20,000 nt of DNA, taken from an uncultured virus (IMG/VR IMGVR_UViG_3300047554_000670). Taxonomy: Duplodnaviria > Heunggongvirae > Uroviricota > Caudoviricetes. The position numbers and the translations under genes are program-made. Positions 158 to 19,938 of the stretch are shown piece after piece. Each line of letters begins with the position of its first letter. Position 1 is the stretch's first letter. The stretch lies in the IMG/VR virus record IMGVR_UViG_3300047554_000670, one strand, 5' to 3'. The notes under the pieces were generated by a model. That model was given only the letters and a program-made list of their open reading frames with translations. It ran no database searches and was not told the DNA's origin.

Positions 158-166
158 CAGAGGATA

Positions 167-589: not shown

Positions 590-635
590 TGTTTTTACCT
601 AAAATTGAGTAAGAAGGAGAAACACAAGGAACAAG

Positions 636-1204: not shown

Positions 1205-1208
1205 AACA

Positions 1209-1523: not shown

Positions 1524-1582
1524 TATTGTTGACTATGTAAGTGGACTGTATGAAAACTTATCCTTGGGTATAAGGGCAGTTC

Positions 1583-1708: not shown

Positions 1709-1746
1709 AGTTGTTTCTTTCGTTGTTAAGTTGTAGATTTCAATCA

Positions 1747-2324: not shown

Positions 2325-2333
2325 TTTTTGGTG

Positions 2334-2561
2334 TTACTTCTTACTCATCTTTGCCCAAGCAATCATAAGAGACGGCCCTTCCCCTGTATTGATGTTATCT
2401 TGAGCATACCAAGAGCCACACAGATAAGAAATGACATAATCCTTCTCCGTATACAGAGAGACAATGACCTGGTGTGTGTTAGGGTCAGGAATCATAAGCT
2501 GATATCCCGACCCAAAAGTATCTTGGCAAAAGGATTCAACTTCGGACAGAAATGTTTTCAT
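2334..2561 (-). CDS. Hypothetical protein (75 aa)
   Basis: ORF track; ATGA overlap with 2558..3100. Confidence 0.7.
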   Translation of the reverse strand: MKTFLSEVESFCQDTFGSGYQLMIPDPNTHQVIVSLYTEKDYVISYLCGSWYAQDNINTGEGPSLMIAWAKMSKK

Positions 2562-3100: not shown

Positions 3101-3327
3101 GGAAGCTCCAAGAAAAAGTGATTATACAGATACACCCCATTGAAGTCCCCACTAGTGAAGAGACTAAGGGACTTGAAATCAAAATCAACTACGGCTTTGA
3201 TGTCAAACTCAAACCACCAACGTTTTGGTGCTTGAGGAAATAAATTCAGTGACACAAGTAGCATCACTGATTTATCCGTTTCTGAAGCGGGACTAAAATC
3301 CCAGTTGAAATCAACCATGTTAATCAC
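3097..3327 (-). CDS. Hypothetical protein (76 aa)
   Basis: ORF track; GTGA overlap with the cysS stop and ATGA overlap downstream. Confidence 0.65.
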   Translation of the reverse strand: MINMVDFNWDFSPASETDKSVMLLVSLNLFPQAPKRWWFEFDIKAVVDFDFKSLSLFTSGDFNGVYLYNHFFLELP

Positions 3328-4598
3328 CTATCCTGAACTTCCACCCCTAATGCTAACAATTTCTGATGTATGAGGTCAGCTTCAGCCCAGTTCTTAGCTT
3401 TACGAGCTAAGTTTCGAGCCGAAATAAGTTGTAGTACATGCGAACTAAGTGCCTCATCTTCAATTGCCATAGCTCTTAACCCTAATACATCTGCCAAAAT
3501 CAACAGCGTAATGCTATTGCAAGGAGTTAAGTTCTTGGCTAACTCAAATAGAACTGCTAGAGCTTTGGCTGTATTAAGGTCACAGTCTAAAGCATCGTTG
3601 AATCGGGCAACAAAATAAAGGTCAAATTGACTATCTTCGGTTATATTCTCCTTAGCTTTAATCAAAGCTTTATTCAGAGATTTCCAACTATTTGATGCGG
3701 ATTCAAGAGCCTCCGTGGTAAATGCTAAAGGTTTACGGTAGTGAGCTTGAAGCACAAATAACCGTAGTGCCATGGGAGAAATACCCTGGAGGTCTAGCAA
3801 GTCTCTGATAGAGGTAAAGTTCCCCTGAGACTTAGACATCTTATCCCCATTGAGGGTTACAAATCCATTGTGGAGCCAAAACTGAGATAACATATGTCCC
3901 GTAACAGCCTCAGACTGTGCAATCTCATTCTCATGATGAGGAAATACGAGGTCCGCACCTCCACAATGAATATCGATACGGTCTCCTAAAGTATCTCGAA
4001 TCATGGCGGAGCATTCAATATGCCATCCAGGTCTTCCTGGACCCCATTTAGAGGGCCAGTTAGGTTCTTCGGGTTTTGCGCTCTTCCAAAGAACGAAATC
4101 ATTTTCTTTCGTTACCTCGATATTTCGTTTTGAAAGCTTACCATAGCCTTCAAACTTACTTATGTCAAAGTAAACCCCATCATCTTTAACTTCATAAGTG
4201 TATTCTTTCTGTTCTAGCTCATGAATTAGTCGTTTAATTCCATCAAGGGTATGAGTAACACGAGGGTAGGCATCAGCTTTCATAATGTTAAGCCTTTCCA
4301 TATCCTCAAAATATGCTTGGATGTATTTCTCCGCTATGTCCTCCATAAGTACATTTTCTTGTTTGGCCCGGTTGAGAATCTTGTCATCTATATCAGTGAA
4401 GTTCTGTACATACTTCACCTTATAACCTAACCAAAGAAGATATCTGCGTAGGGTGTCCCAGACAATATAGGAGCGGGCATGGCCAAGATGACAATAATCA
4501 TATACGGTTACACCACAGCAATATATACTAACTTGCTTTGGTGTAAGAGGTTGAAAGAGTTCTTCGCGACGTGTGAGGCTGTTGTAGAGGTATAACAT
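3324..4598 (-). CDS. cysS: Cysteinyl-tRNA synthetase (class I), cyanobacterial-like, shortened
   Basis: YCCGVTVYDYCHLGHAR (HIGH), NFTDIDDKI, GRPGWHIECSAM, DIHCGGADLVFPHHENE, KMSKS, and a C-terminal ARKAKNWAEAD anticodon helix. Confidence 0.97.
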   Translation of the reverse strand: MLYLYNSLTRREELFQPLTPKQVSIYCCGVTVYDYCHLGHARSYIVWDTLRRYLLWLGYKVKYVQNFTDIDDKILNRAKQENVLMEDIAEKYIQAYFEDMERLNIMKADAYPRVTHTLDGIKRLIHELEQKEYTYEVKDDGVYFDISKFEGYGKLSKRNIEVTKENDFVLWKSAKPEEPNWPSKWGPGRPGWHIECSAMIRDTLGDRIDIHCGGADLVFPHHENEIAQSEAVTGHMLSQFWLHNGFVTLNGDKMSKSQGNFTSIRDLLDLQGISPMALRLFVLQAHYRKPLAFTTEALESASNSWKSLNKALIKAKENITEDSQFDLYFVARFNDALDCDLNTAKALAVLFELAKNLTPCNSITLLILADVLGLRAMAIEDEALSSHVLQLISARNLARKAKNWAEADLIHQKLLALGVEVQDR

Positions 4599-4606
4599 AA
4601 ACTAAC

Positions 4607-4813
4607 CTACAAGAATGGAGTCATATCGAGGTATAAGTTTCCTCGACGGTTATCCTGTACAGGATAATAGTTATCGTTCACTTTTGTAGGAACGAGAGTG
4701 ACAAAGTGATATTCAGTACCGTCATGATACCAACCCACGTAATTACCGTTATCACCCCATGGCTCTAACCCGTAAATCGTTACCATCGGTTCTTTCATAC
4801 AATCTTCTCCCAA
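4607..4813 (-). CDS. Hypothetical protein (68 aa)
   Basis: ORF track; internal ATG at 4798 gives an ATGA overlap. Confidence 0.6.
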   Translation of the reverse strand: MGEDCMKEPMVTIYGLEPWGDNGNYVGWYHDGTEYHFVTLVPTKVNDNYYPVQDNRRGNLYLDMTPFL

Positions 4814-4980
4814 TCAGGGTGCTGGTCAATAATGTTAAACAGCCCTATAAGCCATATATCGCTAGGCTGATTACTCCAATCCCCATCTTCACAGAAGAAG
4901 ACAGGCCAGCCTTGGATAAACACGAAAGAAATTAGGCTTACTCCGCTTCTATGGCGGAAAATGACAAGACCTGTATCCAT
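4795..4980 (-). CDS. Hypothetical protein (61 aa)
   Basis: ORF track; fits the operon tiling. Confidence 0.6.
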   Translation of the reverse strand: MDTGLVIFRHRSGVSLISFVFIQGWPVFFCEDGDWSNQPSDIWLIGLFNIIDQHPDWEKIV

Positions 4981-5048
4981 GGCTATTCTAAATGAGTGTG
5001 AATTAATTAGGGGTGAAGAAGAAACATCTAGGGATATACCTTATAGGG

Positions 5049-5453
5049 TTAACGAGTAAAGCCCATACAACCTAAGACTAGACTTCCATTAGAGAAAGAT
5101 CGAACTACCTTGTAGGGACTAACCATACTCAAAGCTAGAGGACTACCACTCTGCTTAGCCATGGAGAGACATGGCAAAGACACAATTAGAATACCAGAAG
5201 GACCAACATCATCAGGAACTCCCGTAAGCTCCCCATATGTGGACTCAACAATGGGAATCCCATCAATCGGATTTGCTTCAACTGTAGAAACAGTAATTCG
5301 CGCATTACCCATTGAAGGCAATGAAAGAATGGGTGAAACACCTTCTTTTAGCCCCTCCGCGTTCCAAGTAGTAGGGTTAACCTGTGTCAGATTGATAAAG
5401 GCATCTTCCCTGTATACTTCAATTGAGTGAGGTGTTAAGTTGATGAAGGCCAT
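5049..5453 (-). CDS. NLTPH-motif protein; candidate Crn4-like cyclic-oligoadenylate ring nuclease
   Basis: Strong SD (AAAGGAGA); motif string INLTPH...G.ARI...DGIPI...YGE..G.P...LIVS...P..VVR...G...GC..F of a conserved virus-associated family; the Crn4 assignment is from memory and unverified. Confidence 0.55.
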   Translation of the reverse strand: MAFINLTPHSIEVYREDAFINLTQVNPTTWNAEGLKEGVSPILSLPSMGNARITVSTVEANPIDGIPIVESTYGELTGVPDDVGPSGILIVSLPCLSMAKQSGSPLALSMVSPYKVVRSFSNGSLVLGCMGFTR

Positions 5454-5510
5454 AATACAATTCTCCTTTCGTTGTGTACAAAAAACAAGTAGTCATTCGT
5501 TGGGCTAGGG

Positions 5511-6026
5511 TTAAATCAACTCATACCCGATTTTCACCTCATCTTGAATCCACCAAACCCAGCGAATAAGCTTTTGTTTGTCAATGCGTGGGTCAATACC
5601 TTCTAGAGCTAGCAGAGTTAGCTCAGAGAGTAACCGTTCTTTCGTATTATATCCCCGTAAGAGAGTATCTTTAATCACTTCAAATTCAAGACTGTCTAAG
5701 TCCAGCCCTTCTCGAAGAGATTTATACCAGATGTAAGCAACATCGCTGTAACGGGAGGGCCGCCGGATTTTAAGTCGCTTAAACGTAAATTGTTCAGGTT
5801 CAGTCTCCTGAAAGAAGGGTTCCTGAATCCATTCACCTGTTGACTCACTAACATATTCTGCATTCCAAGGAACCTCTTCTACCTGGAAGTTAGTCCCTTC
5901 CGGTTTTTTATCATAGCCATCTTGCTCCGAATGAACCCACATATGCACTACTTTCTCTGCCCCTGGGAGAGAAGTATTGTTGTCAGTAATTGCCCACTGG
6001 GTACGGAAACGGGGGAGAGTATACAT
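5511..6026 (-). CDS. Hypothetical protein (171 aa)
   Basis: ORF track; SD-like AGAGGA upstream of the ATG. Confidence 0.8.
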   Translation of the reverse strand: MYTLPRFRTQWAITDNNTSLPGAEKVVHMWVHSEQDGYDKKPEGTNFQVEEVPWNAEYVSESTGEWIQEPFFQETEPEQFTFKRLKIRRPSRYSDVAYIWYKSLREGLDLDSLEFEVIKDTLLRGYNTKERLLSELTLLALEGIDPRIDKQKLIRWVWWIQDEVKIGYELI

Positions 6027-6094
6027 GAGATGATTCCTCTATAGTAATGAACAAGCCTTTTATAGACATACTTAGGTCTATCACAACTAATGAA

Positions 6095-6286
6095 CTAATC
6101 CAAATCTATACGATCAATAGTTAACCATGATTCGGATTGGTCTCCGTGGTCCCATACACCATGGTCATGGGAGATCAATACTTCACGAGACTTATCAGGA
6201 GATTGAATCCAAATTTCTCCTACATCAATACTAATAACAGTCCAGCCTATGAACTGTTGGACTTTCTGCCAAGTTTCTTGAGTCAT
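6095..6286 (-). CDS. Hypothetical protein (63 aa)
   Basis: ORF track; fits the operon tiling. Confidence 0.65.
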   Translation of the reverse strand: MTQETWQKVQQFIGWTVISIDVGEIWIQSPDKSREVLISHDHGVWDHGDQSESWLTIDRIDLD

Positions 6287-6294
6287 AGTATATC

Positions 6295-6759
6295 TCAGTG
6301 GTATGTACGAGACTTATCCCATACCCCACAAGGGGATAGGTTGTATATGACTCTAACCACCTCCAAGGGGAGGGGCATAGAGTCAAGAGAGGATACTTTA
6401 AGAACAGAGTCAGTAGATTCTAACTTACAGTTCTTGTTCTTAAGAACTCTCCTTAGAGTTCTTGTCTCACGTTCATCATTAGTCTCATACCCGTAATAAG
6501 TCCATCCCCATTGATTCAGGGTGAACTTATTAATGGGTGTAGGCTTAAGGCTATCCTTTCTAAGCTTAAGCAATTTCTGCTTAGCTAGAATATTGCAAGC
6601 ATGTTCAAACTTTATATTTTGTTTTGTACATAACTGAACTATGGAAATCCGGTCTAGTTTAATCAGGATACTCTTACCATCTTTGGTCTCTCCTACCTTG
6701 TGATGATAGAAAGGAGAAGATGACGAAAGGAAAGACTCACACCAAGTTGAGTAGGTCAT
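6295..6759 (-). CDS. Hypothetical protein (154 aa)
   Basis: ORF track; ATGA overlap with the upstream ORF. Confidence 0.75.
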   Translation of the reverse strand: MTYSTWCESFLSSSSPFYHHKVGETKDGKSILIKLDRISIVQLCTKQNIKFEHACNILAKQKLLKLRKDSLKPTPINKFTLNQWGWTYYGYETNDERETRTLRRVLKNKNCKLESTDSVLKVSSLDSMPLPLEVVRVIYNLSPCGVWDKSRTYH

Positions 6760-6959
6760 AGGACTTCAATCTTGATATAGGGACGTGGAGGGGGAGTAAG
6801 AGACACTATTGCATATTCAACCCAACCATCAGGGGTTTCTTTCCAGATGGTCTCAGGGACATGCGTATTTCTGACTTTATCTATTGCCGCATCCTGAACT
6901 TGGACTAAAGTTCTAGAAAACAGCCCAGAATCTTTCATTTCAGTGGTAGCGTATCTCAT
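6756..6959 (-). CDS. Hypothetical protein (likely start ATG 6959)
   Basis: ORF track 6756..6992; the TTG at 6992 lies in a terminator U-tract, so the in-frame ATG is preferred. Confidence 0.65.
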   Translation of the reverse strand: MRYATTEMKDSGLFSRTLVQVQDAAIDKVRNTHVPETIWKETPDGWVEYAIVSLTPPPRPYIKIEVL

Positions 6960-6990
6960 TTGTTTACTCTGTGTAAGATGAAAGACAAAC

Positions 6991-7024
6991 AAAATAAAAC
7001 CCCTAAGATTTATATCCTAGGGGT
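6991..7024 (-). terminator. Intrinsic terminator
   Basis: Minus strand ACCCCTAGGA-TATAAA-TCTTAGGGGT followed by TTTATTTT. Confidence 0.65.
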
Positions 7025-7110
7025 ATAACCTGACTTAACCGATAGTTTAGAGTCATTTCGGACTATAAGGTATGGGCTAAGATGAAATAAGTGATAACGA
7101 AAGATATACT

Positions 7111-7635
7111 TTATCTTTCTTCATCCCATTCTTCACACTGCAATGGTGTGGGGGATGTAACGACACACCCTTTATATAACTTAACTAAGGTATGTGTTCG
7201 GAAAAAAGCGGATTCAAACCACCCTTCCTGTACATATCCTGCCCGACCAACCGATGTGGTCCGGCATAATCTGAAATCATCAGTGACCTCCCCACTGAAG
7301 TCTGGAATTCTGTATGACAAATTCCCGTGTCCACGCCACTCCATTAACTTTTCCCAGCTTTTAGGAATAGGAGATGAAGAGTTATTTAAGTAAATCTCTA
7401 CAAGTTCTTTCCACAGGTGTTGGGAAAGATGATGATGACGAGCTTCTATAACAGACCCATCAACACTGAGTTCAATTTCCTTATCTTCATTAACGGAGAT
7501 TAAGAAACCAGGTAATACATAGTCGGCGGGTAGGAAACCCTCTGGGAAATTTTCAACCCCTAGTAGAATATCTTTCTCAATCTCATCTGCTTCCCACGAA
7601 AGGAGAGCTTCATCAGTGATAAGAATATTAACCAT
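7111..7635 (-). CDS. Hypothetical protein (likely start ATG 7635)
   Basis: ORF track 7111..7656; GAGG precedes ATG 7635. Confidence 0.75.
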   Translation of the reverse strand: MVNILITDEALLSWEADEIEKDILLGVENFPEGFLPADYVLPGFLISVNEDKEIELSVDGSVIEARHHHLSQHLWKELVEIYLNNSSSPIPKSWEKLMEWRGHGNLSYRIPDFSGEVTDDFRLCRTTSVGRAGYVQEGWFESAFFRTHTLVKLYKGCVVTSPTPLQCEEWDEER

Positions 7636-7663
7636 TATTAACCTCAAGATGAACAAAACAACT

Positions 7664-7730
7664 AAGTAGGGGCATAATTCCCTAGTATAGAAATAAGAAG
7701 GTTGAACTTATTTCTATAATTGGAAATCAT
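7664..7730 (-). repeat. Conserved intergenic stem-loop element, copy E1
   Basis: AAGTAGGGGCATAATTCCCTAG is identical to 11895-11916; 12-bp perfect inner stem TATAGAAATAAG/CTTATTTCTATA. Confidence 0.85.
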
Positions 7731-7741
7731 GACGAAAGAAA

Positions 7742-7945
7742 TTAAGGAAAGACTGATGTGCATTCAATAGCACCAGTTAAGACTACTCTCCACCCCTCCT
7801 TAATGAACTTCATACAGTCATTCTCTTGGATAGCTTTAGTTGTAGCTTCTTGTTCTGAGTCAGCTTTTATATTGTGGGAATTAATTAACTTGATGGTTAA
7901 GGTTTTATCCCAACATAAGGCTGTTGTAACTAAGTAGGTTTTCAT
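7742..7945 (-). CDS. Hypothetical protein (67 aa)
   Basis: ORF track; ATG start. Confidence 0.65.
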   Translation of the reverse strand: MKTYLVTTALCWDKTLTIKLINSHNIKADSEQEATTKAIQENDCMKFIKEGWRVVLTGAIECTSVFP

Positions 7946-7952
7946 AGTTATA

Positions 7953-8255
7953 GGGGGGGCGGAAACAAATATAAAGAAAAGATTAAGACCCCATAGAGGA
8001 TATAAGATATTAAGACCCTATATGAGGCTATAGGTTATTAAGACCATATAAGGAGGGTATAGCTATATTCCTATATGAAGGGGAGTATAGGCGGGTATGA
8101 AGGGGGGGGGTCCAGGCTGGGTAAAAATTTTATAAGTTTACCTTATACCATATGAGTAAGAAAATAAGAGTACCTTATGGGTAAGGGAATAAGAACACTT
8201 TATGTGTAAAGAAATAAGATAAACCTATGTAAAAGAAATAAAGTAGACCTATGCG
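7953..8255. repeat. Non-coding block with two degenerate tandem arrays and G-tracts
   Basis: ATTAAGACC at 7982, 8009 and 8037; TATG..AAG..AATAAG units starting at 8151, 8176, 8201 and 8226, with a further TATG at 8250; G7 at 7953 and G9 at 8102. Confidence 0.8.
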
Positions 8256-8294
8256 TCAAATCTAATCTATAGCTATATAGTAATATAAATAGAC

Positions 8295-8329
8295 AAAAAA
8301 ATACCCTAGAAGATAACTCCTAGGGTATT
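8295..8329 (-). terminator. Intrinsic terminator after the 550-aa ORF
   Basis: Minus strand AATACCCTAGGAG-TTAT-CTTCTAGGGTATT plus a run of T. Confidence 0.8.
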
Positions 8330-8362
8330 GGGTTTAAGTCTTGTTACGGTAGCAGGTTAAGG

Positions 8363-10015
8363 TTATAGCATCCCCCGTTTAAGCTTAAACTTCAAATCTT
8401 TAATCTGTTGTTTTGTTAGGTTATCAAGATCATAGCCTAACGAGATTAATTGCTGAGTTAATGGAGAATCAGATAGGGTACGGTCTTGTATTCTGGGTTG
8501 TTGCTGTATACGTCTTAAGGTTTCATCCTGGAAAGATTTAATCTTACTTTCCCCCTTTAACACCCCCTCCCAGATTTCTAGGGGAGTTCTACTATCCCCC
8601 GATAATTTACGGTACTCAGCTATATTATCGCTAGTGAGTATCGCTGGGGGTTGTAGTGTAATATATTCACCATCACAATAAGGGGATAAATAACTATCCC
8701 CATAGCGTAATCGTTTCCATTGTCCTGACAAATCAAGACCTAGAAAATGAGCTTGCATTATTTCACGGGTAAAGTGCGGGATACTGTATTTAGTACCCCC
8801 CAGGATTAGGTTACTTTCCTCTAATTCCTTTACTTTAACGGGCTTAGTTACTTTGTAATACAGCGTTACAAGTTTGCCCATATCTAAAGTTTTCCCTACT
8901 CCGAGGTTAGGATCTAAAGTAGGTTTTAATGGGATAGGGACTAACTTAGGCTGATCATTCTCAATACTTAACCGTGTATTGAGTACCGGGATACTTTGGT
9001 AAGTTTGGTTATTTGTATTCGTTAACTCCAAGTAAATTGTTGTGCCGGATACTGTAAGCCAGTAACTTAGACCTTGGAATGTTGGAGACAATTCTGGGAA
9101 TAACTCAGGATTGCTATATACCCGTGTTCCTACTTTCGCTCCTTTAGGTAAACCTTTACTTTTGAATTTTGCTTTAACTCCTACTTTATCTGGAGCATAC
9201 CCTAGTTTACCGGCTGGGGTTTTCTTACGGGTTTTGTTCTTTAGAGTAGAATATTTTTCTGGCTCAGGACAAACGGGGACGGCTATAGTTTTATGGTCAT
9301 TAGAAACAACCCAGGGAACTTCTGAGGTATAGCCTACTGTGTTTGTTAGCTGAGTATATAGCGCTATAGGGCACAATGAAAGATCATACTGGTAAATACT
9401 ATTGACATTTGCTGCCGCTGGTTCAGGGGATAACCCTACCAGGTTTTGTAATTTGTTACCCTGAATTTTTGCCCCTACCAGGGTTGTGGGTAAAGTATTC
9501 GCCCCATTATTGTATTCCTTTAGGTCAGTTCTACAGAAAACCTGTAGAATAAAACCCTTATCATATTTTTCGGAACCGCCATAATGGGAAAAGATCTGAT
9601 CACAAGACTCTGGATCCTCAATCATTTTATTGATAGGGACAGCTAAAATATTCCCACTAGCAGCTTGGAATAAGGGTATTGGATAGTCAGGGTAAGTATA
9701 AATATGCTGATAATCACTCTTATCTTCTGAAAACTTACGAGATACCCAAAGACCTTGGTTAAGACAGCGATAGAACAAAACTAAGGCTTCTAAACCTGTA
9801 ATCTTTTGTTTCTGAACTACTTTATTTTTTTTAGGTTTAGCGTTATCTTTTTTTTCTTCTGTCCCTAGCTTTTCTTCTAGGAAATTTTTCAGCTTAAAAC
9901 TAGGGGTAACATCGATTAACTCTATTCCATGATAGGCAATTTTGTTTAACGCATAAGGAGTAAAACCTAGTTTTTCTAAACCACGGTAACAGGGGAAGTA
10001 TTGGGTGATGGTCAT
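8363..10015 (-). CDS. Large hypothetical protein (550 aa, Lys/Pro-rich)
   Basis: Long ORF with ATG start followed by a terminator; no motif recognised. Confidence 0.9.
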   Translation of the reverse strand: MTITQYFPCYRGLEKLGFTPYALNKIAYHGIELIDVTPSFKLKNFLEEKLGTEEKKDNAKPKKNKVVQKQKITGLEALVLFYRCLNQGLWVSRKFSEDKSDYQHIYTYPDYPIPLFQAASGNILAVPINKMIEDPESCDQIFSHYGGSEKYDKGFILQVFCRTDLKEYNNGANTLPTTLVGAKIQGNKLQNLVGLSPEPAAANVNSIYQYDLSLCPIALYTQLTNTVGYTSEVPWVVSNDHKTIAVPVCPEPEKYSTLKNKTRKKTPAGKLGYAPDKVGVKAKFKSKGLPKGAKVGTRVYSNPELFPELSPTFQGLSYWLTVSGTTIYLELTNTNNQTYQSIPVLNTRLSIENDQPKLVPIPLKPTLDPNLGVGKTLDMGKLVTLYYKVTKPVKVKELEESNLILGGTKYSIPHFTREIMQAHFLGLDLSGQWKRLRYGDSYLSPYCDGEYITLQPPAILTSDNIAEYRKLSGDSRTPLEIWEGVLKGESKIKSFQDETLRRIQQQPRIQDRTLSDSPLTQQLISLGYDLDNLTKQQIKDLKFKLKRGML

Positions 10016-10054
10016 GATAAGTAATTAAGTGATTAAGTGATTGATAGGGTGAAC

Positions 10055-10080
10055 AAAAACCCCTAGTATAGGCTAGGGGT
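10055..10080 (-). terminator. Intrinsic terminator
   Basis: Minus strand ACCCCTAG-CCTATA-CTAGGGGT-TTTT, just after the stop of 10095..10994. Confidence 0.65.
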
Positions 10081-10094
10081 ATAAATTACATAGC

Positions 10095-10994
10095 TTAGCT
10101 AAAATCGGTCATTAGTTGTTTCATTGACCGTTTGAAGTTTGCCTCAACTTTCACTCCGGGGAGTAAGACTGATTTACGGGCTGTACCTGTAGCTCCCCCA
10201 CTAGCAATATAGTCCTGAAGTTTTTTACCCTCTAAGTTTTTAACTTTCCCATAGGACATATTGAGAGCATTAAAGACATCTTGCGTGAAAACCTGGGGAT
10301 TAAGGATCATCTTCTCGTGAAGACTTAGATCCTTAATGATTTTATCCTTTAAACCCGCTAAAACAGGATTTAGACCCGTTACTAAAGGGATACTTAAAAG
10401 AGTTTGATCCTCCTTAGATTGGATTAAGCGGAGAGCCATGATCAGATTCTTTTCTGACCACTCTAAAAATTGGGTGTAGGTTGTAGCATGACCTACCCCT
10501 AAAGGAATACTGTCGTTTGCGACATATACTATGTCTGGGTGATGGCTGAACAATAACAAGGATACTGTGGTATCTTTAGACAACTTATAGTTATCAATGA
10601 GTAACCATTGATCCTTCACTTTGTCATGCTTAAACTCAGTGATGATGGACTGCTTAGAGAATTCATTTTTGTAAGCAGTTAGGTCTTTGTATCCATAAAA
10701 TTCTAAGAATTTTACGGTAGGGTTAGGTACAGTTTGTCCTAAAGTTAAGATATCAAGGGATTGCAGGAAAGTCTTAACCTGGTCATTTGTATGGTCAGGA
10801 TTAAGGTCAATACTCAATTCTTGCGCAATAGCAAGCAAATTTTGATCCCGTTGTTCTTTAGGGGTTGTCGGGTCTTGTTCTTGCGTGTCAGTTTGTTCCG
10901 TTTGTTCCGTTTGTACTGTATCAGTTTGCACGATATCAGTTTGTTCCGTGGTTGTTTTGGGTGTTGCAGTTTTAGAGTTTTTAGCTGTGGCCAT
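10095..10994 (-). CDS. Hypothetical protein (299 aa) with low-complexity TEQTD-repeat N-terminus
   Basis: SD GGAG upstream; long ORF; repeated TEQ/QTD. Confidence 0.9.
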   Translation of the reverse strand: MATAKNSKTATPKTTTEQTDIVQTDTVQTEQTEQTDTQEQDPTTPKEQRDQNLLAIAQELSIDLNPDHTNDQVKTFLQSLDILTLGQTVPNPTVKFLEFYGYKDLTAYKNEFSKQSIITEFKHDKVKDQWLLIDNYKLSKDTTVSLLLFSHHPDIVYVANDSIPLGVGHATTYTQFLEWSEKNLIMALRLIQSKEDQTLLSIPLVTGLNPVLAGLKDKIIKDLSLHEKMILNPQVFTQDVFNALNMSYGKVKNLEGKKLQDYIASGGATGTARKSVLLPGVKVEANFKRSMKQLMTDFS

Positions 10995-11064
10995 GATAGG
11001 ACTCCAGAATAGGGTGATTGAACTAAAGACCTAACCCATAGAGGGTTATTCAGGATTTACAAAG

Positions 11065-11117
11065 TAATTCCCTAAGCTAGGGTATACAAATTAATATATA
11101 CCCTAGATTTGAGAATC
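11065..11117 (-). repeat. Conserved intergenic stem-loop element, copy E2
   Basis: AATTCCCTAAG-[CTAGGGTATA..TATACCCTAG]-ATTTGAGAATC abutting the stop codon at 11118. Confidence 0.85.
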
Positions 11118-11555
11118 TTAGTTATCTCCAATTAGATAAGAGAGAATCTCTAAGTTTAGTCCAAAATCTTTTAGACAATTTAGAAAATTCTCCTTAGTTA
11201 GTTTTTTCTCATCCCCTATATCACCTTTGTGGAAAATTTGGAAAATTTCTTTATAGGGTAGAAAAGAATGGTGACGATATGAGAAATAAAAACGGTTAAA
11301 GTCTACTTCTATCTTGCATGTCAATCCCTCGTAGAAAACATGCGAAATAGACTTACAATTACAGCATGTGATAGCCTTACAACCACGGCAATCATCATTA
11401 CCAAAAGTAACATGATAATCATAGTTGGAGGGACTTAGAAAACCACTATGTTTAGAACGGTTTTTCAATGCCATATATGCTTTAGCAAGTAAAGGATATA
11501 TGCTGGGGATGAAAGTATCATCTATTTTCATAACACAGTAAGGGATGAATGACAA
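11118..11555 (-). CDS. Hypothetical protein with Cys cluster (CRGC...CCNC)
   Basis: ORF track; start is TTG 11555 or ATG 11531. Confidence 0.75.
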   Translation of the reverse strand: MSFIPYCVMKIDDTFIPSIYPLLAKAYMALKNRSKHSGFLSPSNYDYHVTFGNDDCRGCKAITCCNCKSISHVFYEGLTCKIEVDFNRFYFSYRHHSFLPYKEIFQIFHKGDIGDEKKLTKENFLNCLKDFGLNLEILSYLIGDN

Positions 11556-11601
11556 AATTCCCTAAGCTACCCTAACAATTAATAGGGTAGATTTGAGAAT
11601 C
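11556..11601 (-). repeat. Conserved intergenic stem-loop element, copy E3
   Basis: AATTCCCTAAG-[CTACCCTA..TAGGGTAG]-ATTTGAGAATC fills the whole gap between two ORFs. Confidence 0.85.
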
Positions 11602-11868
11602 TTACATATTTTGGACTTCTAGGGCATTAACATACCCTAGATAGCAGCTATCCACAAATTGATTCCAACAATCCCAACCCTCCCAGTCTACTAAGAAATG
11701 CGCAGACTCACCCCAGCAAAAAGGCTGGTACGTAGATAAACAAATTGCATGAAGGGATAGACTAGGGCTTACATGAAGGGATAGAGTAGGATAGGGATCT
11801 TCAGGGTTAAAGATACCAAAGTTAATGACGGCAATAACTAGAAGACGCTCAAATTCTTGACGGTTCAT
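11602..11868 (-). CDS. Hypothetical protein (88 aa)
   Basis: ORF track; ATG start. Confidence 0.7.
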   Translation of the reverse strand: MNRQEFERLLVIAVINFGIFNPEDPYPTLSLHVSPSLSLHAICLSTYQPFCWGESAHFLVDWEGWDCWNQFVDSCYLGYVNALEVQNM

Positions 11869-11894
11869 AGGGTGATTCCAATGATTTTACTGCA

Positions 11895-11949
11895 AAGTAG
11901 GGGCATAATTCCCTAGACCAGAGAAAATTATCTCTGGTGTTGAGAATCA
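11895..11949 (-). repeat. Conserved intergenic stem-loop element, copy E4
   Basis: AAGTAGGGGCATAATTCCCTAG-[ACCAGAGA..TCTCTGGT]-GTTGAGAATCA next to the stop at 11950. Confidence 0.85.
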
Positions 11950-12198
11950 TTAGATATCGCGGGATAAAAGATTATCAATATAACCGTCAAGCCGATACAT
12001 GATAGGCTTGAAGATTACGGGTTCCTCAGAATTAGCTGTAACAGGACAACCCGTAAGGCGATCAACCATAATACCTACAGGAGTGATATATGGGTGACGT
12101 TCTGTATTAGGAAAACTGAGAACTAAGTCAACCCAGCCATCTTGACGCTGGATTAATTCAATCTTTTTACCGTTAAGGTTATAGGTCATAAAAACCAT
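11950..12198 (-). CDS. Hypothetical protein (82 aa)
   Basis: SD AGGAG upstream of the ATG. Confidence 0.75.
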   Translation of the reverse strand: MVFMTYNLNGKKIELIQRQDGWVDLVLSFPNTERHPYITPVGIMVDRLTGCPVTANSEEPVIFKPIMYRLDGYIDNLLSRDI

Positions 12199-12328
12199 GA
12201 TGTTTGCTCCTAAGATAGTAGGGTTAAGATGTACTTTGCCTGTTCAATTGTCAACTGGGGAAACAGTCTAATTAGCTGGTTTACCGTTGTAGGTCTAAAC
12301 GGTAGACCCTTGATAGAAATCGCTATCT

Positions 12329-12490
12329 CTAGCATTTGACCTCCAACATAGTGGGATCATACAGTCCAGACCGGATAGATAGATTACCTATCCACAAATG
12401 AAAACCCGGATATAATCCTACACTGGAAGACTTAAATTGAATTGGCCCTAATGTAGCAAAAACAGTACCAGATGAGTAGACTTTAAGCAT
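12329..12490 (-). CDS. Small hypothetical protein (likely start ATG 12490)
   Basis: GGAG SD before ATG 12490; the upstream part of ORF 12329..12559 is a heptamer repeat. Confidence 0.55.
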   Translation of the reverse strand: MLKVYSSGTVFATLGPIQFKSSSVGLYPGFHLWIGNLSIRSGLYDPTMLEVKC

Positions 12491-12501
12491 TAGATTGCTC
12501 C

Positions 12502-12572
12502 AAAGATGAAAGACTAAAGATGAAAGATGAAACGAGATGGGATGAAAGACGAAAGACAAAAGATGAAAGATA
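12502..12572. repeat. Heptanucleotide tandem repeat (AAAGATG-like), STRR-style
   Basis: aaagatg aaagact aaagatg aaagatg ... aaagacg aaagaca aaagatg aaagata. Confidence 0.85.
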
Positions 12573-12582
12573 TCAATTAAGG

Positions 12583-12629
12583 CTTGATATCGTATAGCCT
12601 AACAATACGATAGGCTATAAGTTATCAAG
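12583..12629 (-). repeat. Intergenic stem-loop E5: same architecture, different sequence
   Basis: Minus strand: stop, CTTGATA-ACT-TATAGCCTA-loop-TAGGCTATA-CGA-TATCAAG. Confidence 0.7.
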
Positions 12630-12920
12630 TTAGTCAGGATACTCTAGGATTAGGTCTTCTAAGTCATCTAAGGGATCAGAATCTAGATATTGCTTTACTA
12701 GGGCTAAGTTGTTTTGAGCCTCAGTAAGCTTGTCCAATATAATATTTTCCGGTTTTCTGTTTTTTCGCGTGTACAGAATATCTATCATCCCCTGATACTT
12801 ACTAACCTCCTGACTGAAAAACTCAACTAAGACACTGTAAAGGGTTTCTGAATTAACTGGAGGGATATAATCCCTAATTTGAAAAGTAGAGTCTTGAGAC
12901 GATACCTTAACCCTGCCCAT
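12630..12920 (-). CDS. Hypothetical protein (96 aa)
   Basis: ORF track; ATG start. Confidence 0.7.
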   Translation of the reverse strand: MGRVKVSSQDSTFQIRDYIPPVNSETLYSVLVEFFSQEVSKYQGMIDILYTRKNRKPENIILDKLTEAQNNLALVKQYLDSDPLDDLEDLILEYPD

Positions 12921-12992
12921 ACCGTCAAGAATTAAGTAGTAGGTATGATTAGGTTTTAGGGGATAAGCTTCTATGTAGGATAGAATTAAGTT

Positions 12993-13382
12993 TTAACGTA
13001 AACCCATTAACTTAACGATTTCATCTCTCAATTCTTCCAATAAGAGAGTATCACGGTCACTCGGATTTAGGTCACTCTGGGTAAAAAACTGGGAATATAT
13101 TCTACTTAAGCAAAATCGTACATAAAAACCCTCCTCTCCATATATGTGGAGGTCAATAAACCAAGAATCCCCCTGGGTTGTGTTGTAGTGTGATATATGA
13201 AGACCTAAGCCCACACCGTAGGAATACCATTTATTGGGGTAGTAGTGAGATGAATCATTGATTGATTTAAGATCTTCAGTTAGATGAAAAGCTAGGGTTC
13301 TAATATATTTTGGAGATCCCGTCTTTTTGATGAAAATCTGTTGAATTAGATCCTGTATAGTTTGGGTTGTTTGGGTTGTCAT
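12993..13382 (-). CDS. Hypothetical protein (129 aa)
   Basis: ORF track; GAGGG SD-like sequence upstream. Confidence 0.75.
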   Translation of the reverse strand: MTTQTTQTIQDLIQQIFIKKTGSPKYIRTLAFHLTEDLKSINDSSHYYPNKWYSYGVGLGLHISHYNTTQGDSWFIDLHIYGEEGFYVRFCLSRIYSQFFTQSDLNPSDRDTLLLEELRDEIVKLMGLR

Positions 13383-13471
13383 AAGGTTTGTATCCCTCTA
13401 CTTGTAGACAGTACCCTAGACACAATGGACAATGGACTAGGGTAATGTATAAAGTTAAGGGTTAAACTTTA

Positions 13472-13666
13472 TTAATCATCATCTTCTAGTGCTTCTAGAC
13501 TTTCCCAGCCATCCTGGGATTGCTTAGGGGTATTCATTAGCTTATTAATAGCGTCAATAGCTGTTTCTTTACAACTAAATTGACAACCACAGCATGAAGT
13601 TAGTGTATAACCCTTTATAAATTGAAAAACCCCATTTTCATCTAAAGTTTGCCAGTCTTTAGTCAA
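13472..13666 (-). CDS. Hypothetical protein, start uncertain
   Basis: ORF track (TTG start); the frame stays open upstream to 13792. Confidence 0.55.
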   Translation of the reverse strand: MTKDWQTLDENGVFQFIKGYTLTSCCGCQFSCKETAIDAINKLMNTPKQSQDGWESLEALEDDD

Positions 13667-13803
13667 ACTTAAAGACCAGTCGAAAGGTTGCCCTAAACCA
13701 AGAAAATTAATTTCAACCCACTCTAGCGCAACAGTTACGTCAAGACTAAAACCGTTAGCTTGTTTAGTGTAGGGTAAGGTTTTAACCCTACCCTATACAT
13801 TTA

Positions 13804-14079
13804 TTAATCGAATCTATGTGTTTCGATTTCTACTGTAATTTTCTCATCTTCTAGCGATAGGAAAACATTAGTGATACGTGTTACCGTTTCATACATCACA
13901 TAGATAGAAAAATCCGTATCATAGTGAGGATAGAACTGGCAGGGTCTTAACATCCCTTGACGTTCATAGAAACGTTTTGGTAAGGGAAAGATGCAATAAT
14001 CTTTAGGGTAGGATATTTGCTTAAAGGCATCTGGGGATCCGTATTCTTTAAGGAGATGAGAGAAAAGACGATCAAACAT
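13804..14079 (-). CDS. Hypothetical protein (91 aa), probably the first gene of the minus-strand block
   Basis: GGAG SD upstream of ATG 14079. Confidence 0.75.
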   Translation of the reverse strand: MFDRLFSHLLKEYGSPDAFKQISYPKDYCIFPLPKRFYERQGMLRPCQFYPHYDTDFSIYVMYETVTRITNVFLSLEDEKITVEIETHRFD

Positions 14080-14259
14080 CTTAATAACTCCAGTGTGTTA
14101 GGTCTATTTAGAATCATCATCAACCATAAGCTATGGATGGGATGACTCAAGATAGACCAGGATGAAAGTAACATATACAGTTTAGGTATATGGCACTTTA
14201 GGGGTTAAGTTAATCTACTTTGTTTGTACGGTAAAGATGTTAGACTGTGACCCGTGTTA

Positions 14260-14665
14260 GAAAGGCGCTTTAAGCAATGCCTCCTGGGTGTGTGAATCAT
14301 CTTCAGAGATACGGTAGATTTAGAGCATACTGCCAAGATATAGGGTTTAATTGTAACCCTATGGCGTAACCCTAACCTTTACGGTAGGGTTTGGGTTTGT
14401 AGCGTACTGCTTAACACCTCCCACCCCCTATAAGTCACAGGGTGGGCATACTGCCCAACATTTAGGCTTGTTAGGTAACCCTTACGCTTATGGTAGGTTG
14501 CGTAAGTACCCTTAGAGTTAAGGCTCTAAGACCTAGCCGGTTTTGTACTACAGGTTTTCTACCGACTGAACCATTAAGTTGTCAAGGTACGCGGGCTAGA
14601 CTGTACCAGAATTAAGCCTAAGCTTAAACTGGACCAAGTTGAAGCCTAACCACAGCTTCAAGACT
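14260..14665 (-). ncRNA. Candidate structured ncRNA or long structured leader
   Basis: About 10 closely spaced hairpins; informative G-U pairs favour the minus strand; three GCAGTAYGC motifs; no convincing ORF. Confidence 0.55.
14573..14590 (-). promoter_or_regulatory. boxA-like antitermination element (cyanobacterial type)
   Basis: Minus strand GTACCTTGACAACTTAAT resembles cyanobacterial rrn boxA (GAACCTTGAAAACTG..), preceded by two hairpins. Confidence 0.6.
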
Positions 14666-14713
14666 TTGGGACTACAGCGCAATCGCACCGTTTCCCTTAT
14701 CTCTGATGCCAAT

Positions 14714-14742
14714 AGCATAACGTGAACGAAAGTAAATGACCA
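14714..14742 (-). promoter_or_regulatory. Possible sigma70-type promoter for the minus-strand block
   Basis: TGGTCA-17 nt-TATGCT on the minus strand, ~125 nt upstream of boxA. Confidence 0.3.
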
Positions 14743-15118
14743 GAATGACCCGAACAAACGAGATTTCAGGCAGAAATTGGTCAAATTTGGGTGTATTGGG
14801 TATGGTCTCACCAACCCAAACAAAAACCCACCTATACCCCACATATACAAAACTCAGTCTTATCAATCCTTAACGATGAATTCCTAAGAAAATTGCAAAT
14901 CGCAAATCAAAGAACATATCATGGAAATTTAGACCCCTAATTACAAACCCCATATGATGAATTTAGGGGTATCTGATAACCCATAAATTTCTAAGGTAGA
15001 ATTGGATATGATAAATCACAAACAGAACCTATATAAAATCTGTATATATCGTATATATGATATGTGTGTATGTGTATATAGGTATCTCTCATATCTTTCA
15101 TTTAACGAGGTCATTTCT

Positions 15119-15901
15119 GTGTCTAACATCGCCAAATACGACTGGGACCAAATCCGTAACGAATACATCATGGGGAATCTTCATACAGACCCTAAAACTG
15201 GTTTACGCAAACACACCTACCCTACGCATAAACAAATTAGTGCCAAATACGGAGTAAATCTCTCATATCTACAAGATAAGTCTTGTGCTGAATTCTGGGG
15301 ACAACGTAGAAAGGCCCTAAAAGCCAAACTTCATAACAGATTTGTAGACTGGAAACTTGGTGCATTCATAAGTGAATCTGCACAAGTAGATGCCTTGACC
15401 GTAGATAAGATTAAGAAAATTCATCAAGTTATGGACCTATATCTAGAACAAGCACTAAATCCCTTAGAAACCACAAATGAACAGGGGGATACGAAGGTAG
15501 AATTTAACGTGACACCAAATGAGTTACAAAGCATCGTGACCACATTGGAGAAATGCCAGAAACTTATGAGATTAAGTAACAATGAACCCGTAGACGCAGC
15601 ATCCGTAGCAAAAGAACTTAAAAAAGCTCTATTACAGGACTATGAAAAACCCACAAACACATATGGTAAGAACGAAAACTCATATGGATATGGGAAAAAC
15701 CAATCTTCCATACCCATTGGGGTACAACAAGAAATAGACCAAAAACTTAAATCAGTCTATGGAGATATCATTGATATCGAACATACAACAGTAGAAGATC
15801 AAAATCAAACTCTATCTACATTGCAAAAGAAAGAAAAGAATCTTGATAAAGTGATGAAAAAGATAGAAGAAGAGATTGAAGAACTTAAGAAAGACCCATA
15901 A
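15119..15901 (+). CDS. Terminase small subunit-like HTH protein
   Basis: GAGG SD then GTG 15119; KYDWDQIRNEYIMG...THKQISAKYGV...LQDKSCAEFW fits the DW..I...Y..G...KYGV...E.W HTH pattern of many TerS; helical/coiled-coil remainder. Confidence 0.65.
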   Translation: MSNIAKYDWDQIRNEYIMGNLHTDPKTGLRKHTYPTHKQISAKYGVNLSYLQDKSCAEFWGQRRKALKAKLHNRFVDWKLGAFISESAQVDALTVDKIKKIHQVMDLYLEQALNPLETTNEQGDTKVEFNVTPNELQSIVTTLEKCQKLMRLSNNEPVDAASVAKELKKALLQDYEKPTNTYGKNENSYGYGKNQSSIPIGVQQEIDQKLKSVYGDIIDIEHTTVEDQNQTLSTLQKKEKNLDKVMKKIEEEIEELKKDP

Positions 15902-17603: not shown

Positions 17604-18202
17604 ATGTAACTTTTTCTAACATAGTGTTCTCTAATTTATACAAACAGTTGTACAAAAAACGTTACATATCAAAAAATGTTGCAGTTAAAAAATCATACTA
17701 GGGAATATTCATAGTTTGTAGACCTGCAACCGTTTTTGATCAAAAATGTTTCATCTATAGCTAAAATATTCCAAAAAACGTTGCATCCAGAATATGACAA
17801 AAAACGTTGTACCTTATATATTTCAAAAAAGGTTGTACCTAGAATAATCTAGAAAACGTTGCACTTTATATGCTAGATTTATAAAAATGACCTTAAATAC
17901 CGTGATAAGTTCTACTCCAATTGTACATTTTAGCTGCAAAAAAAATTTGCACAATTTCTCTTTCTATAGCAATAAATCCCAAAAAAATTTTGCAGGTATA
18001 TACTTTTTCGTCAAGATATCTTGAATCTATCTTAGTGTGTAACTTATTTGTGTGTAACTTTTTTTAGTAACGTCTTCTAGTGTTTATACAAACAGTTATA
18101 CAGAAAATGTTACTCTCCCTGATAATTTCTTAGTTTATTCATTTTTCATATTTTTATGACTAAAAATTTAAGTCTCATTTAATTATACAAAAAATGTTAC
18201 AT
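17604..18202. repeat. AT-rich iteron-like region, candidate replication origin
   Basis: More than 12 copies of (C)AAAAAA(C/T/G)GTT(G/A)(C/T)A in both orientations; four in tandem at an exact 26-bp period (17772, 17798, 17824, 17850). Confidence 0.75.
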
Positions 18203-18205
18203 TCA

Positions 18206-18214
18206 TGTTATACT
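18206..18214 (+). promoter_or_regulatory. Extended -10 promoter element (TGnTATACT) for the helicase-like gene
   Basis: TGTTATACT ~30 nt upstream of ATG 18244; a repeat box sits immediately upstream. Confidence 0.45.
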
Positions 18215-18243
18215 AAGAATGTACTTACAGAGAAATCTTATTC

Positions 18244-19938
18244 ATGTTTTATTCTGATTGTTTTAATTCTATCCCCGAAGGTATTGTTAATAAAAAGGTA
18301 TGTGGTTGTGGCATCACATCCTATGCATTAGAGAACGCATCTCCAATAATTCTCTGTGTTCCTACAGTAGAGATTATTCGCAACAAACTCTCTCAATACC
18401 CCAACGAAAGAAGAAAAGAAGAAATCCTTGGCATATATGAAGGAAAGAACAAACACAGTTATCAGATTGAATCCTACCTAGATAAGGTAGATGTTCCTAA
18501 AATCCTAGTTACTTATGATAGTCTCCACTACCTAACTCCCTATCTTAATATGTTTCATTTGGTGATTGATGAATTCAGCGAATTACTTGATTGTTATTCC
18601 TTTCGTTCTAATGCCATTAACAGTCTAGTAGAAATTATTAAAGCTAAACGTTATCAAAAGTTATCTTTAGTATCCGCAACACCTATATCCTCTGAATACC
18701 TCCCTGCTTATTTACAGGAGCTTCCTTATACAGAACTAGATTGGAAAGAAGATGATTTAATCAAAGTTAATGTTGTACCGATTCAAACTTCTCGTACAGT
18801 AACTTCAGTTCTAAATATTATTAAAAACTATAAGCGTGGTCTTGTTAAAGATTCTAATCAAGCATTTTTCTTTGTTAATTCCTTAAGCTTAATCACTAGT
18901 ATCTTAGAAAAGTCAGACCTTACTACTAATGATGTTCATGTTGTCTGTAGTAATACAAGAGCAAATAAAAATAGACTTGATTACTTCTCCATCTCAACTA
19001 CAACAGATGTAAATAATACTCCTCGGATGTTTAACTTCTTTACCTCTACAGCATTCAAAGGATGTGATATTTACAGTGAGTCAGGTATGAGTTATGTAAT
19101 TAGTAACAATACCAATATAAATACACTACTTACAATTGACACAGATATCTACCAGATTGCAGGACGTATCAGAACTCCCCATAACCCTCATCGTCACACC
19201 TTATACCATATTCATAATCAAAATCCACTTGCCTTAGCTAAGGAAGATGCTGATAACTTAAGAGACTCAATTAAACAAGAAACTTTAAGCTTAATAGCTG
19301 CATTCGATAAAGCCTCTCCAAAAGAACGGAAAGACCTTATTAATATTTACCTTAAAAGTAATATTGATAAGACCACATATAGTCTTATTGATAAAGAAAA
19401 TACAAAACTTATCTATGATGAATTAAAAGAATTATTAGATAAAAGAGTGTATGAGACCGTGATTAAGGTTTATCAATCAGGGTTGTCTTTAATAAAAACC
19501 TATGAGGATAATAACTACATTGTAAAAGAAACCATAAAGTCTAATGTTATTAGAGATGATTTCTCTACGGTGTTTAAGCTCTATTACCAAAATCCTAATT
19601 GTAATAATGAAGATATCTTTACTAGATTTCCCTTAATAGAAGAAGCTTGTACTAAATTAGGTTTGGAAAGATGTAAGACTCTTGCCTTTAGAAAAGATAG
19701 AATTACAGAAGAACTTTCTTTCGTCAATAACCAAGAAAGTATTAAGAACCTCTTGAGAAATAGGTTGAAAAAAGAATTCTATTCCTTAGCTGATATCAAA
19801 CTTCTACTAGGTAAGACCTATAAAGAACTTGGTATTAATAAAAAAGCTAAGGCTAAAGATATAGAGTTATTCTTACCCCTATCCGAAACAACACTTCAGA
19901 TTAAAGGTAAAAGAGTTAAAGGTTATAGAATTAAATAA
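18244..19938 (+). CDS. SF2 (DEAD/DEAH-like) helicase-domain protein, putative origin-binding/replication initiator
   Basis: Motif I-like KVCGCGITS, Ia CVPTVEII, II VIDEFS, III SATP, IV FFVNS, V TSTAFKGCD, VI QIAGRIR; basic C-terminal domain. Confidence 0.8.
   Translation: MFYSDCFNSIPEGIVNKKVCGCGITSYALENASPIILCVPTVEIIRNKLSQYPNERRKEEILGIYEGKNKHSYQIESYLDKVDVPKILVTYDSLHYLTPYLNMFHLVIDEFSELLDCYSFRSNAINSLVEIIKAKRYQKLSLVSATPISSEYLPAYLQELPYTELDWKEDDLIKVNVVPIQTSRTVTSVLNIIKNYKRGLVKDSNQAFFFVNSLSLITSILEKSDLTTNDVHVVCSNTRANKNRLDYFSISTTTDVNNTPRMFNFFTSTAFKGCDIYSESGMSYVISNNTNINTLLTIDTDIYQIAGRIRTPHNPHRHTLYHIHNQNPLALAKEDADNLRDSIKQETLSLIAAFDKASPKERKDLINIYLKSNIDKTTYSLIDKENTKLIYDELKELLDKRVYETVIKVYQSGLSLIKTYEDNNYIVKETIKSNVIRDDFSTVFKLYYQNPNCNNEDIFTRFPLIEEACTKLGLERCKTLAFRKDRITEELSFVNNQESIKNLLRNRLKKEFYSLADIKLLLGKTYKELGINKKAKAKDIELFLPLSETTLQIKGKRVKGYRIK

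Follow-up and report, generated by a model that had tools for sequence, protein, structure and literature searches.

The locus considered here raises a simple question: what does a non-coding stretch packed with hairpins do at the head of a 14-kb run of phage genes read from one strand? It lies at positions 14260 to 14665 of a 20,000-nucleotide (nt) stretch of DNA from an uncultured virus of the Caudoviricetes (IMG/VR IMGVR_UViG_3300047554_000670), and we refer to that whole stretch as the window. A first-pass annotation, made from the letters alone, had taken the block for an undescribed structured RNA of a phage, such as an antitermination leader, a protein sponge, or an anti-defense RNA. 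Within it we identified a motif that matches the boxA of cyanobacterial rRNA (rrn) operons. We consider it probable, if only narrowly so, that the block is the structured leader of a long leftward early-type operon, in which this rrn-type boxA recruits host Nus factors for read-through. The argument leans on the following features, where ORF stands for open reading frame.

2 to 14079, minus strand: 14-kb minus-strand block whose ORFs are mostly orphans
13804 to 14079, minus strand: first ORF of the minus-strand block, 91 amino acids, without a known family
14260 to 14665, minus strand: hairpin-dense non-coding block, G+C 45.8% versus 37.4% for the window, which is phage-like DNA
14569 to 14592, minus strand: extended conserved element of 20 to 24 nt, common to a metagenome contig (L002) and T7-like cyanopodovirus contigs
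14577 to 14588, minus strand: boxA-like core, reading ACCTTGACAACT on that strand, the single match in the 20-kb window

The boxA motif and the genes downstream

The core has a counterpart in the rRNA operons of cyanobacteria. In both operons examined, from two genomes, ACCTCGACAAYT lies 150-180 nt upstream of the 16S rRNA gene and on the same strand, and ACCTTGAAAACT occurs in the spacer between the tRNAs and the 23S gene. According to a preprint, GAACCTTGAAAA is the boxA conserved in the 16S-23S spacers of cyanobacteria. The extended element agrees with the rrn leader of one cyanobacterial genome (G234) at 17 of 20 positions. The host boxA motif also precedes tRNA arrays at two further cyanobacterial loci, and NusB-family genes were present in all three cyanobacterial genomes checked. 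With up to three mismatches, the 20-mer was no commoner in 401 cyanobacterial genomes than its reversed control; some variants occur at two to four copies per genome, and only such recurrent multicopy variants are informative. On sequence grounds, we identify the motif at 14577-14588 with the antiterminator boxA found in the rRNA operons of cyanobacteria. The first ORF of the minus-strand block follows on the same strand, at a distance of 509 nt.

The genes downstream of the motif are studded with predicted terminators. Between positions 1 and 14700 we counted 23 terminator-like sites (consensus matches) against 10.1 ± 3.3 expected, 16 of them on the minus, or sense, strand. Strong hairpin-plus-U-tract sites stand in the gaps at 8329-8300, 7024-6999, 1127-1100, and 10080-10059. 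Sigma-70-like promoter matches are depleted over the same interval (22 versus 40 ± 6.8 in shuffles). The block itself contains none, and the single minus-strand match upstream of it lies at 15037-15008. To our knowledge, cyanobacteria are without Rho, so the targets of antitermination would be intrinsic terminators.

Recurrence of the motif among cyanophages

The motif is present as one copy per genome, in non-coding DNA, in two relatives of the window's phage, four T7-like cyanopodoviruses, and the Pseudanabaena phages Pam2 and PA-SR01. In 9 of 9 phage loci it lies on the sense strand of the early-type genes downstream. The two relatives came from searches with the proteins flanking the block, which yielded one viral contig (L001) and the 2.2-kb metagenome contig L002. 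They bear on the right-hand side of the locus, which is laid out as follows.

14080 to 15118: gap of 1 kb between the minus-strand run and a plus-strand gene
14706 to 15118, no strand assigned: A+T-rich divergent promoter region, kept in the relatives' contigs, with the sequence left of about 14706 replaced in some
15119 to 15901, plus strand: divergent gene, its GTG start inferred from the L001 alignment, with a small-terminase-like N-terminal domain

L001 shares the divergent gene at 54% identity. The N-terminal 70 residues of the product resemble a protein encoded directly upstream of a large terminase and a P22-type portal in a metagenome locus (L003), as well as a protein of the Pseudanabaena phage PA-SR01 that lies two genes from the large terminase. 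DNA similar to 13800-15100 was absent from 50,697 phage records, and an exact 35-mer search of viral contigs returned nothing. The DNA upstream of the shared gene in L001 and L002 does not align with the window, nor are the hairpin sequences conserved; this DNA is also raised in G+C (43% versus 30-36%). L002 has a 20-mer around 14569-14588 in common with the window, and L001 carries the boxA-like ACCTAGACAATT at the equivalent place. The boxA of L002 can pair with an inverted copy.

The two relatives part abruptly from each other 235 nt upstream of the shared gene. Contigs from four freshwater DNA runs cover parts of the block, and window DNA was matched in freshwater metagenomes only. Some of these contigs break at about 14706, with unlike sequence leftward, while 14706-15900 is conserved, which marks a mosaic border. 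Within the G+C-rich upstream region of L001 sits a minus-strand gene (276-692) for a basic 138-amino-acid protein; it has homologues at 93% and 61% identity, belongs to no family that we found, and is absent from the window.

More distant phages carry the same motif. A search of viral contigs with the 20-mer AACYATTWAGTTGTCAAGGT found two loci only, both on T7-like cyanopodovirus contigs that encode ThyX and a T7-type terminase. In both, the site lies in a non-coding stretch of about 900 nt that runs from the terminase/thyX end to small early genes. Of the cultured relatives, S-CBP1 carries one copy, at about 200 nt from the end of its record, and in DSL-LC07 a variant precedes early genes, an antirestriction gene among them. 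Across this set of four sequences, boxA is unpaired and placed between a hairpin and a structured segment. The segment 3' of boxA shows compensatory changes in 5 of 36 pairs (8 of 41 in a longer alignment), together with sense-strand G-U pairs that do not vary.

In the four sequences (S-CBP1, DSL-LC07, and the two contigs: L100 2960-3215, L101 1995-2250, L115 1-250, and L116 1480-1680), the structured segment directly 3' of boxA is near invariant over about 85 nt. It had no Rfam match in the two sequences searched (L100 and L101, 0 each) and is possibly an undescribed leader RNA of T7-like cyanopodoviruses. We built a covariance model of the order hairpin-boxA-helix from these four sequences. 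It matches the window at 14610-14515 on the minus strand with 12.1 bits (E about 0.05) and L002 with 15.8 bits (E about 0.006), E values that are rough because the calibration was shortened. The model aligns 14586-14607 to the T7-like helix before boxA and 14535-14567 to the helix after it.

Pam2 (143 kb) and PA-SR01 (137 kb) each contain one exact ACCTYGAMAAYT, with an estimated 0.13 expected and 0 and 1 matches to the reversed-pattern controls. Both copies are on the minus strand and fall in non-coding DNA that extends for over 1.3 kb before a plus-strand gene transcribed divergently; for Pam2, the minus strand is sense for the leftward genes. About 90 nt upstream of boxA, both have the promoter-like TTGCAA-17-TAACTT (Pam2, L129 2431-2560; PA-SR01, L130 691-830; both minus). 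A leader some 75 nt long, containing a small CCCCA/UGGGG hairpin, separates this site from boxA, a layout that parallels the host rrn leader.

The hairpin array and what may explain it

We defined a perfect hairpin as a Watson-Crick stem of at least 7 bp with a loop of 3-15 nt and used 2,000 dinucleotide shuffles as the null. Within 14330-14665 there are six, against a shuffle mean of 0.43 (maximum 4); none of the 2,000 shuffles reached six, and no other of the 984 sliding positions of the window has so high a density. The crowding described by the first-pass annotation is thus borne out, and every stem that it listed exists in perfect or imperfect form. Together with two that it did not list (14586-14607 and 14443-14457), the hairpins are as follows.

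14606 to 14661, minus strand: hairpin pair 5' of boxA (14639-14661 and 14606-14632), in a boxB-like position
14586 to 14607, minus strand: hairpin abutting boxA by its 3' arm, GGUAC/GUACC with a 12-nt loop
14535 to 14567, minus strand: hairpin directly after boxA, with arms GUCGGU/ACCGGC and one of its pairs G-U on the minus strand
14332 to 14530, minus strand: run of abutting hairpins (14511-14530, 14481-14506, 14454-14476, 14443-14457, 14420-14446, 14368-14391, and 14332-14365)
14443 to 14457, minus strand: small palindromic hairpin of 6 bp with a 3-nt loop, overlapping the 3' arm of 14420-14446
14263 to 14285, minus strand: last hairpin, G+C-rich, followed by UUUCU on the minus strand
14340-14362 (8 bp), 14368-14391, 14420-14446, 14481-14506, 14511-14530, and 14639-14661: the perfect hairpins
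14606-14632, 14535-14567, 14454-14476, 14263-14285, and the outer part of 14332-14365: imperfect hairpins

Other parts of that description also held. Three stems (14454-14476, 14535-14567, and 14263-14285) do contain pairs that are G-U on the minus strand only. No credible ORF covers the block, which has stops in all six frames and small ORFs without a counterpart in the relatives. Rfam covariance searches gave no gathering-score match in the window, the large phage RNAs included, and all matches that appeared at E values up to 10 were to snoRNAs and miRNAs, at chance level. A tRNA or tRNA remnant was rejected (ARAGORN, 0; no tRNA match at E up to 10), as was an internal duplication, the block having only weak 23-nt repeats and short motifs. 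We found no clear common motif in the loops. Mimicry of the host by the whole block, whether of CRISPR repeats or host RNAs, was rejected too: 6 of 401 cyanobacterial genomes gave matches with E up to 0.01, about the chance level, and the best match (G018) was without the motif.

Some of the energetics favor the minus strand. Summed hairpin energies are -97.1 kcal/mol on the minus strand versus -85.0 on the plus strand, with 8 of 11 hairpins stabler on the minus strand, for hairpins that were chosen by eye and partly on the minus strand. After boxA (14260-14565), the folding z-score is -3.34 for the sense strand versus -1.94 for the other; in the T7-like contig L101 the values are -2.55 versus -0.40. 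The stem 14611-14628 reappears in L001 (174-193), where it closes another loop. With its high G+C and the UUUCU behind it, the last hairpin (14263-14285) might act as a weak terminator or attenuator.

Two short motifs repeat in and around the block, each three times and at the places noted in the first pass. GCRTACTGC, which reads GCAGTAYGC on the minus strand, occurs in the window only inside the block (3 of 3 occurrences, with 0.06 expected), as follows.

14325 to 14333, minus strand: GCAGTAYGC copy 1, with the 12-mer GCATACTGCCAA common to L001 759-770
14402 to 14410, minus strand: GCAGTAYGC copy 2, which may pair with the 5' flank of boxA
14446 to 14454, minus strand: GCAGTAYGC copy 3, within the palindromic hairpin 14443-14457

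The shorter GCAGTAY has eight copies across the three relatives, all in one orientation, and GCAGTAYGC was not found in PA-SR01 or Pam2. A long-range helix is predicted between 14402-14415 (GCAGUACGC, copy 2) and 14581-14592, with a probability of 0.27-0.97 depending on the folded context; if it forms, boxA would be sequestered. TACCGTA, in minus reading, stands at 14227, 14310, and 14380, and the window holds eight copies in total versus 1.55 expected, seven of them on the minus strand. We rejected a sigma-70 promoter reading of GCAGTAYGC and TTGACA, as there is no consistent -10 at the proper spacing. A third word, TAGGG, is overrepresented three- to fivefold in the whole window, with 60 copies on the plus strand and 40 on the minus, where either strand should have about 13. 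Many copies fall in hairpin arms (ACCCTA...TAGGGT) or directly precede start codons (CACCCTATG).

From what we observed here (the hairpins, the motif, its identity with the host boxA, its orientation, and its recurrence in cyanophages), we infer transcription, Nus binding, and read-through in the following form. Host RNA polymerase would start within 14600-14760 and, by analogy with Pam2, near 14660-14715, close to the mosaic border. It would transcribe one or two hairpins and then boxA, exposed as single-stranded ACCUUGACAACUUAAU. NusB-S10 would bind boxA as in rrn operons, and a Nus-factor antitermination complex would assemble on the polymerase. Modified in this way, the polymerase could pass the rest of the leader hairpins and the terminator-like hairpins in almost every gap of the 14-kb block. 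The other hairpins would form the leader structure and might gate or attenuate unmodified polymerase, or protect or process the 5' end. The eight or so that follow boxA may gate unmodified polymerase or give the 5' end stability, or they may be punctuation hairpins that have accumulated.

A number of our results count against this reading. No RNA runs were found among the sequencing runs carrying window DNA, and the promoter, the start, and the transcribed strand are therefore putative. The first-pass annotation had looked to folding beyond shuffled controls; the whole region does fold better than its shuffles (z of -2.48 on the minus strand), but only modestly, and the plus strand behaves alike (-2.03). 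Strands are alike as well in L002 20-420, which is strongly structured (z of -5.0 and -4.8), and in L001 100-700 (-6.05 and -5.6), a stretch that includes a real gene; L001 693-1125 is unstructured (+0.19 and -0.70). The leaders of Pam2 and PA-SR01 have z-scores of -0.24 and -1.37, and hairpin density is thus not constant with boxA. In a relative's contig with a loose end at 14401, the innermost pair of hairpin 14368-14391 is changed to one that pairs on plus-strand RNA and not on minus. The boxA-like match of L001 has one mismatch, with about 0.7 such matches expected, and is not significant alone, and the covariance scores are low, with the motif itself as their main source. On the host side, neither rRNA nor tRNA turned up in the 0.7-3 kb inspected at 10 of 14 loci with 20-mer near-matches, and a 13-nt pattern occurred 233 times in 61 genomes versus 143 for its reversed control, a ratio of 1.6. 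The host boxA motif therefore extends beyond rrn operons, and chance accounts for some matches. The core also holds TTGACA, which in the window taken alone may be a -35 promoter element. Lastly, GCAGTAYGC and TACCGTA are not accounted for by a boxA leader.

Part of the material for a different explanation lies in the gaps of the minus-strand block. A cassette is repeated there on the minus strand (7657-7741, 10995-11117, 11556-11601, and 11869-11949), in the order TGATTCTCAA, a hairpin with differing yet complementary arms, and CTTAGGGAATTA(TGCCCCTAC). It resembles the promoter-early stem-loop (PeSL) type and amounts to covariation within one genome; its flanks GATTCTCAA and TAGGGAATT occur outside the hairpin block only. 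On an account that we hold to be unlikely, only boxA, perhaps with the two flanking hairpins, is functional, and all other hairpins are punctuation piled up by recombination or gene loss at cassette borders, as in PeSL-like shuffling. The whole window is indeed rich in perfect hairpins (55 versus 19.4 in shuffles), nearly every gap of the minus-strand block having one, and many hairpins inside and outside the block share CCCTA/TAGGG arms made of the overrepresented TAGGG. The relatives exchange the block at the sharp border near 14706, L001 and L002 diverge as described, and hairpin sequences are not kept among them. Against debris of this kind speak the missing cassette flanks of the block's hairpins, the raised G+C of the block in all three relatives, the strong structure of L002, and the six perfect stems within 336 nt, far above even the genome's own background.

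We give a little less credence still to the idea that the block acts as DNA, as a packaging or terminal region or a replication origin, with GCAGTAYGC as protein-binding sites and TTGACA as a -35 element. That the two strands fold about equally well in the window and L002 would suit it, as would the small-terminase-like neighbor with its homologues near large terminases in L003 and PA-SR01, the position of the T7-like motif at the expected site of the genome ends (in S-CBP1, some 200 nt short of the record end), and the uniform orientation of the eight GCAGTAY copies. The cumulative GC skew peaks at the block, but this peak coincides with the switch in transcription direction, and the raised G+C is unlike typical origins. 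The motif, moreover, is identical to a host rrn boxA that works as RNA and is common to phages with unrelated terminases. Six aligned phage sequences have no conserved -10 at a proper distance, and the compensatory pairs of the T7-like set begin 12-19 nt after TTGACA, upstream of any start from such a -35. A free-standing structured RNA, expressed separately as a protein sponge or anti-defense decoy, seems to us quite improbable. It would fit a hypervariable and mosaic block of raised G+C that heads an early region. Its transcript could end at the last hairpin with UUUCU, and the first gene could have a promoter of its own in the promoter-like TTAACC-18-TAAACT picked out by eye around 14200-14170. 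The core conserved among the relatives, however, consists of boxA and two short motifs only, 401 cyanobacterial genomes hold only chance-level look-alikes, no Rfam family matches, and the loops are without a clear common motif.

We keep the boxA leader as the preferred reading. It retains one part of the first-pass interpretation, the antitermination leader, by way of the host-type boxA that heads a terminator-rich block. "Undescribed structured RNA" proved too strong because boxA is a described kind of element, and nothing was found in support of the sponge or anti-defense ideas. A broader proposal, more tentative than the leader itself, is that unrelated cyanophage lineages (T7-like podoviruses, the group of roughly 140-kb Pseudanabaena phages, and the window's phage) copy a host rRNA-operon leader signal. 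This would make polymerase resistant to termination in the rrn manner, without a phage N protein, in hosts without Rho. In Pam2 and PA-SR01, the copied signal comprises promoter-like site, leader, and boxA; here, the field of about eight hairpins would be a gate that admits only Nus-modified polymerase. If true, ACCTYGAMAAYT in a large non-coding region would show, in uncultured cyanophages, where early transcription begins and which way it runs, the reading of long terminator-studded early operons in Rho-less hosts would be explained, and unrelated phage lineages would have converged on the capture of host rRNA transcription machinery. The proposal is directly testable in the cultured systems S-CBP1, DSL-LC07, Pam2, and PA-SR01.

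Genomic setting and comparison with known systems

Elsewhere in the window, the minus strand encodes a full-length cysteinyl-tRNA synthetase (3324-4598; PF01406, E = 2e-122) carried by the phage, matched best among genomes by those of cyanobacteria (48-54% identity along its entire length, 63% in the best segment). A non-coding gap of 417 nt at 7946-8362 contains two families of tandem iteron-like repeats of about 21 nt, lies after the strong terminator at 8329-8300, and is a candidate origin or regulator-binding array. The A+T-rich gap at 17656-18243, upstream of a DEAD-like helicase gene (18244-19938), repeats GYAACRTTTTTTG some eight times on its minus strand.

The use of boxA by phages is textbook knowledge for lambdoid coliphages. 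A limited literature search found no paper on boxA or Nus-dependent antitermination in cyanophages. boxA is a described element, and what appears new to that search, going by the sequence matches, is its setting in cyanophage early leaders from at least three phage lineages.

The closest model is the rrn leader, with its order boxB-boxA-boxC and the factors NusB-S10, NusA, NusG, and SuhB. There, boxB, boxA, and boxC in nascent pre-rRNA trigger formation of the antitermination complex (PMC10250234), and boxA RNA with NusB-S10 nucleates a termination-resistant polymerase in rrn operons and at lambda nut sites (PMC10250234, PMC2800207, PMC3177189). The window has the same 12-nt boxA core as the host leader and spacer, in sense orientation ahead of a long transcription unit. 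Its order may be of the rrn type as well, with a hairpin (14586-14607) abutting, on the 5' side, a boxA that may be single-stranded or paired with 14402-14415. It differs in that its boxA precedes protein-coding phage genes rather than stable RNA, about eight more hairpins follow, and no boxC was identified.

Lambda nut sites, which combine boxA, boxB, and the N protein, are likewise phage early leaders with a host-type boxA beside a hairpin, used to pass terminators (PMC2800207, PMC2724277). The window is unlike them in that its motif copies a cyanobacterial boxA and its hairpin order is rrn-like. No N-like antiterminator family was recognized with Pfam and PHROGs among the 22 window ORFs scanned, most of which are orphans, the 20 kb in view leaving about 85% of the presumed genome outside the window.

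PeSL cassettes of T4-type phages (PMC2839356) share with the locus hairpins that punctuate small orphan early genes and mosaic exchange at non-coding borders. The block is nonetheless a single, nonrepeated array of unlike hairpins, without a repeated sigma-70 promoter and without cassette flanks, and so it is not a promoter/stem-loop cassette of the PeSL type.

The nearest phage parallel is the T7-like cyanopodovirus region of S-CBP1, DSL-LC07, L100, and L101. It differs from the window in its conserved, covarying structure of about 85 nt, to which the window aligns at the motif and helix positions only. Both have the same boxA 16- to 20-mer in the orientation of the early genes, with a hairpin before it and a helix after it.

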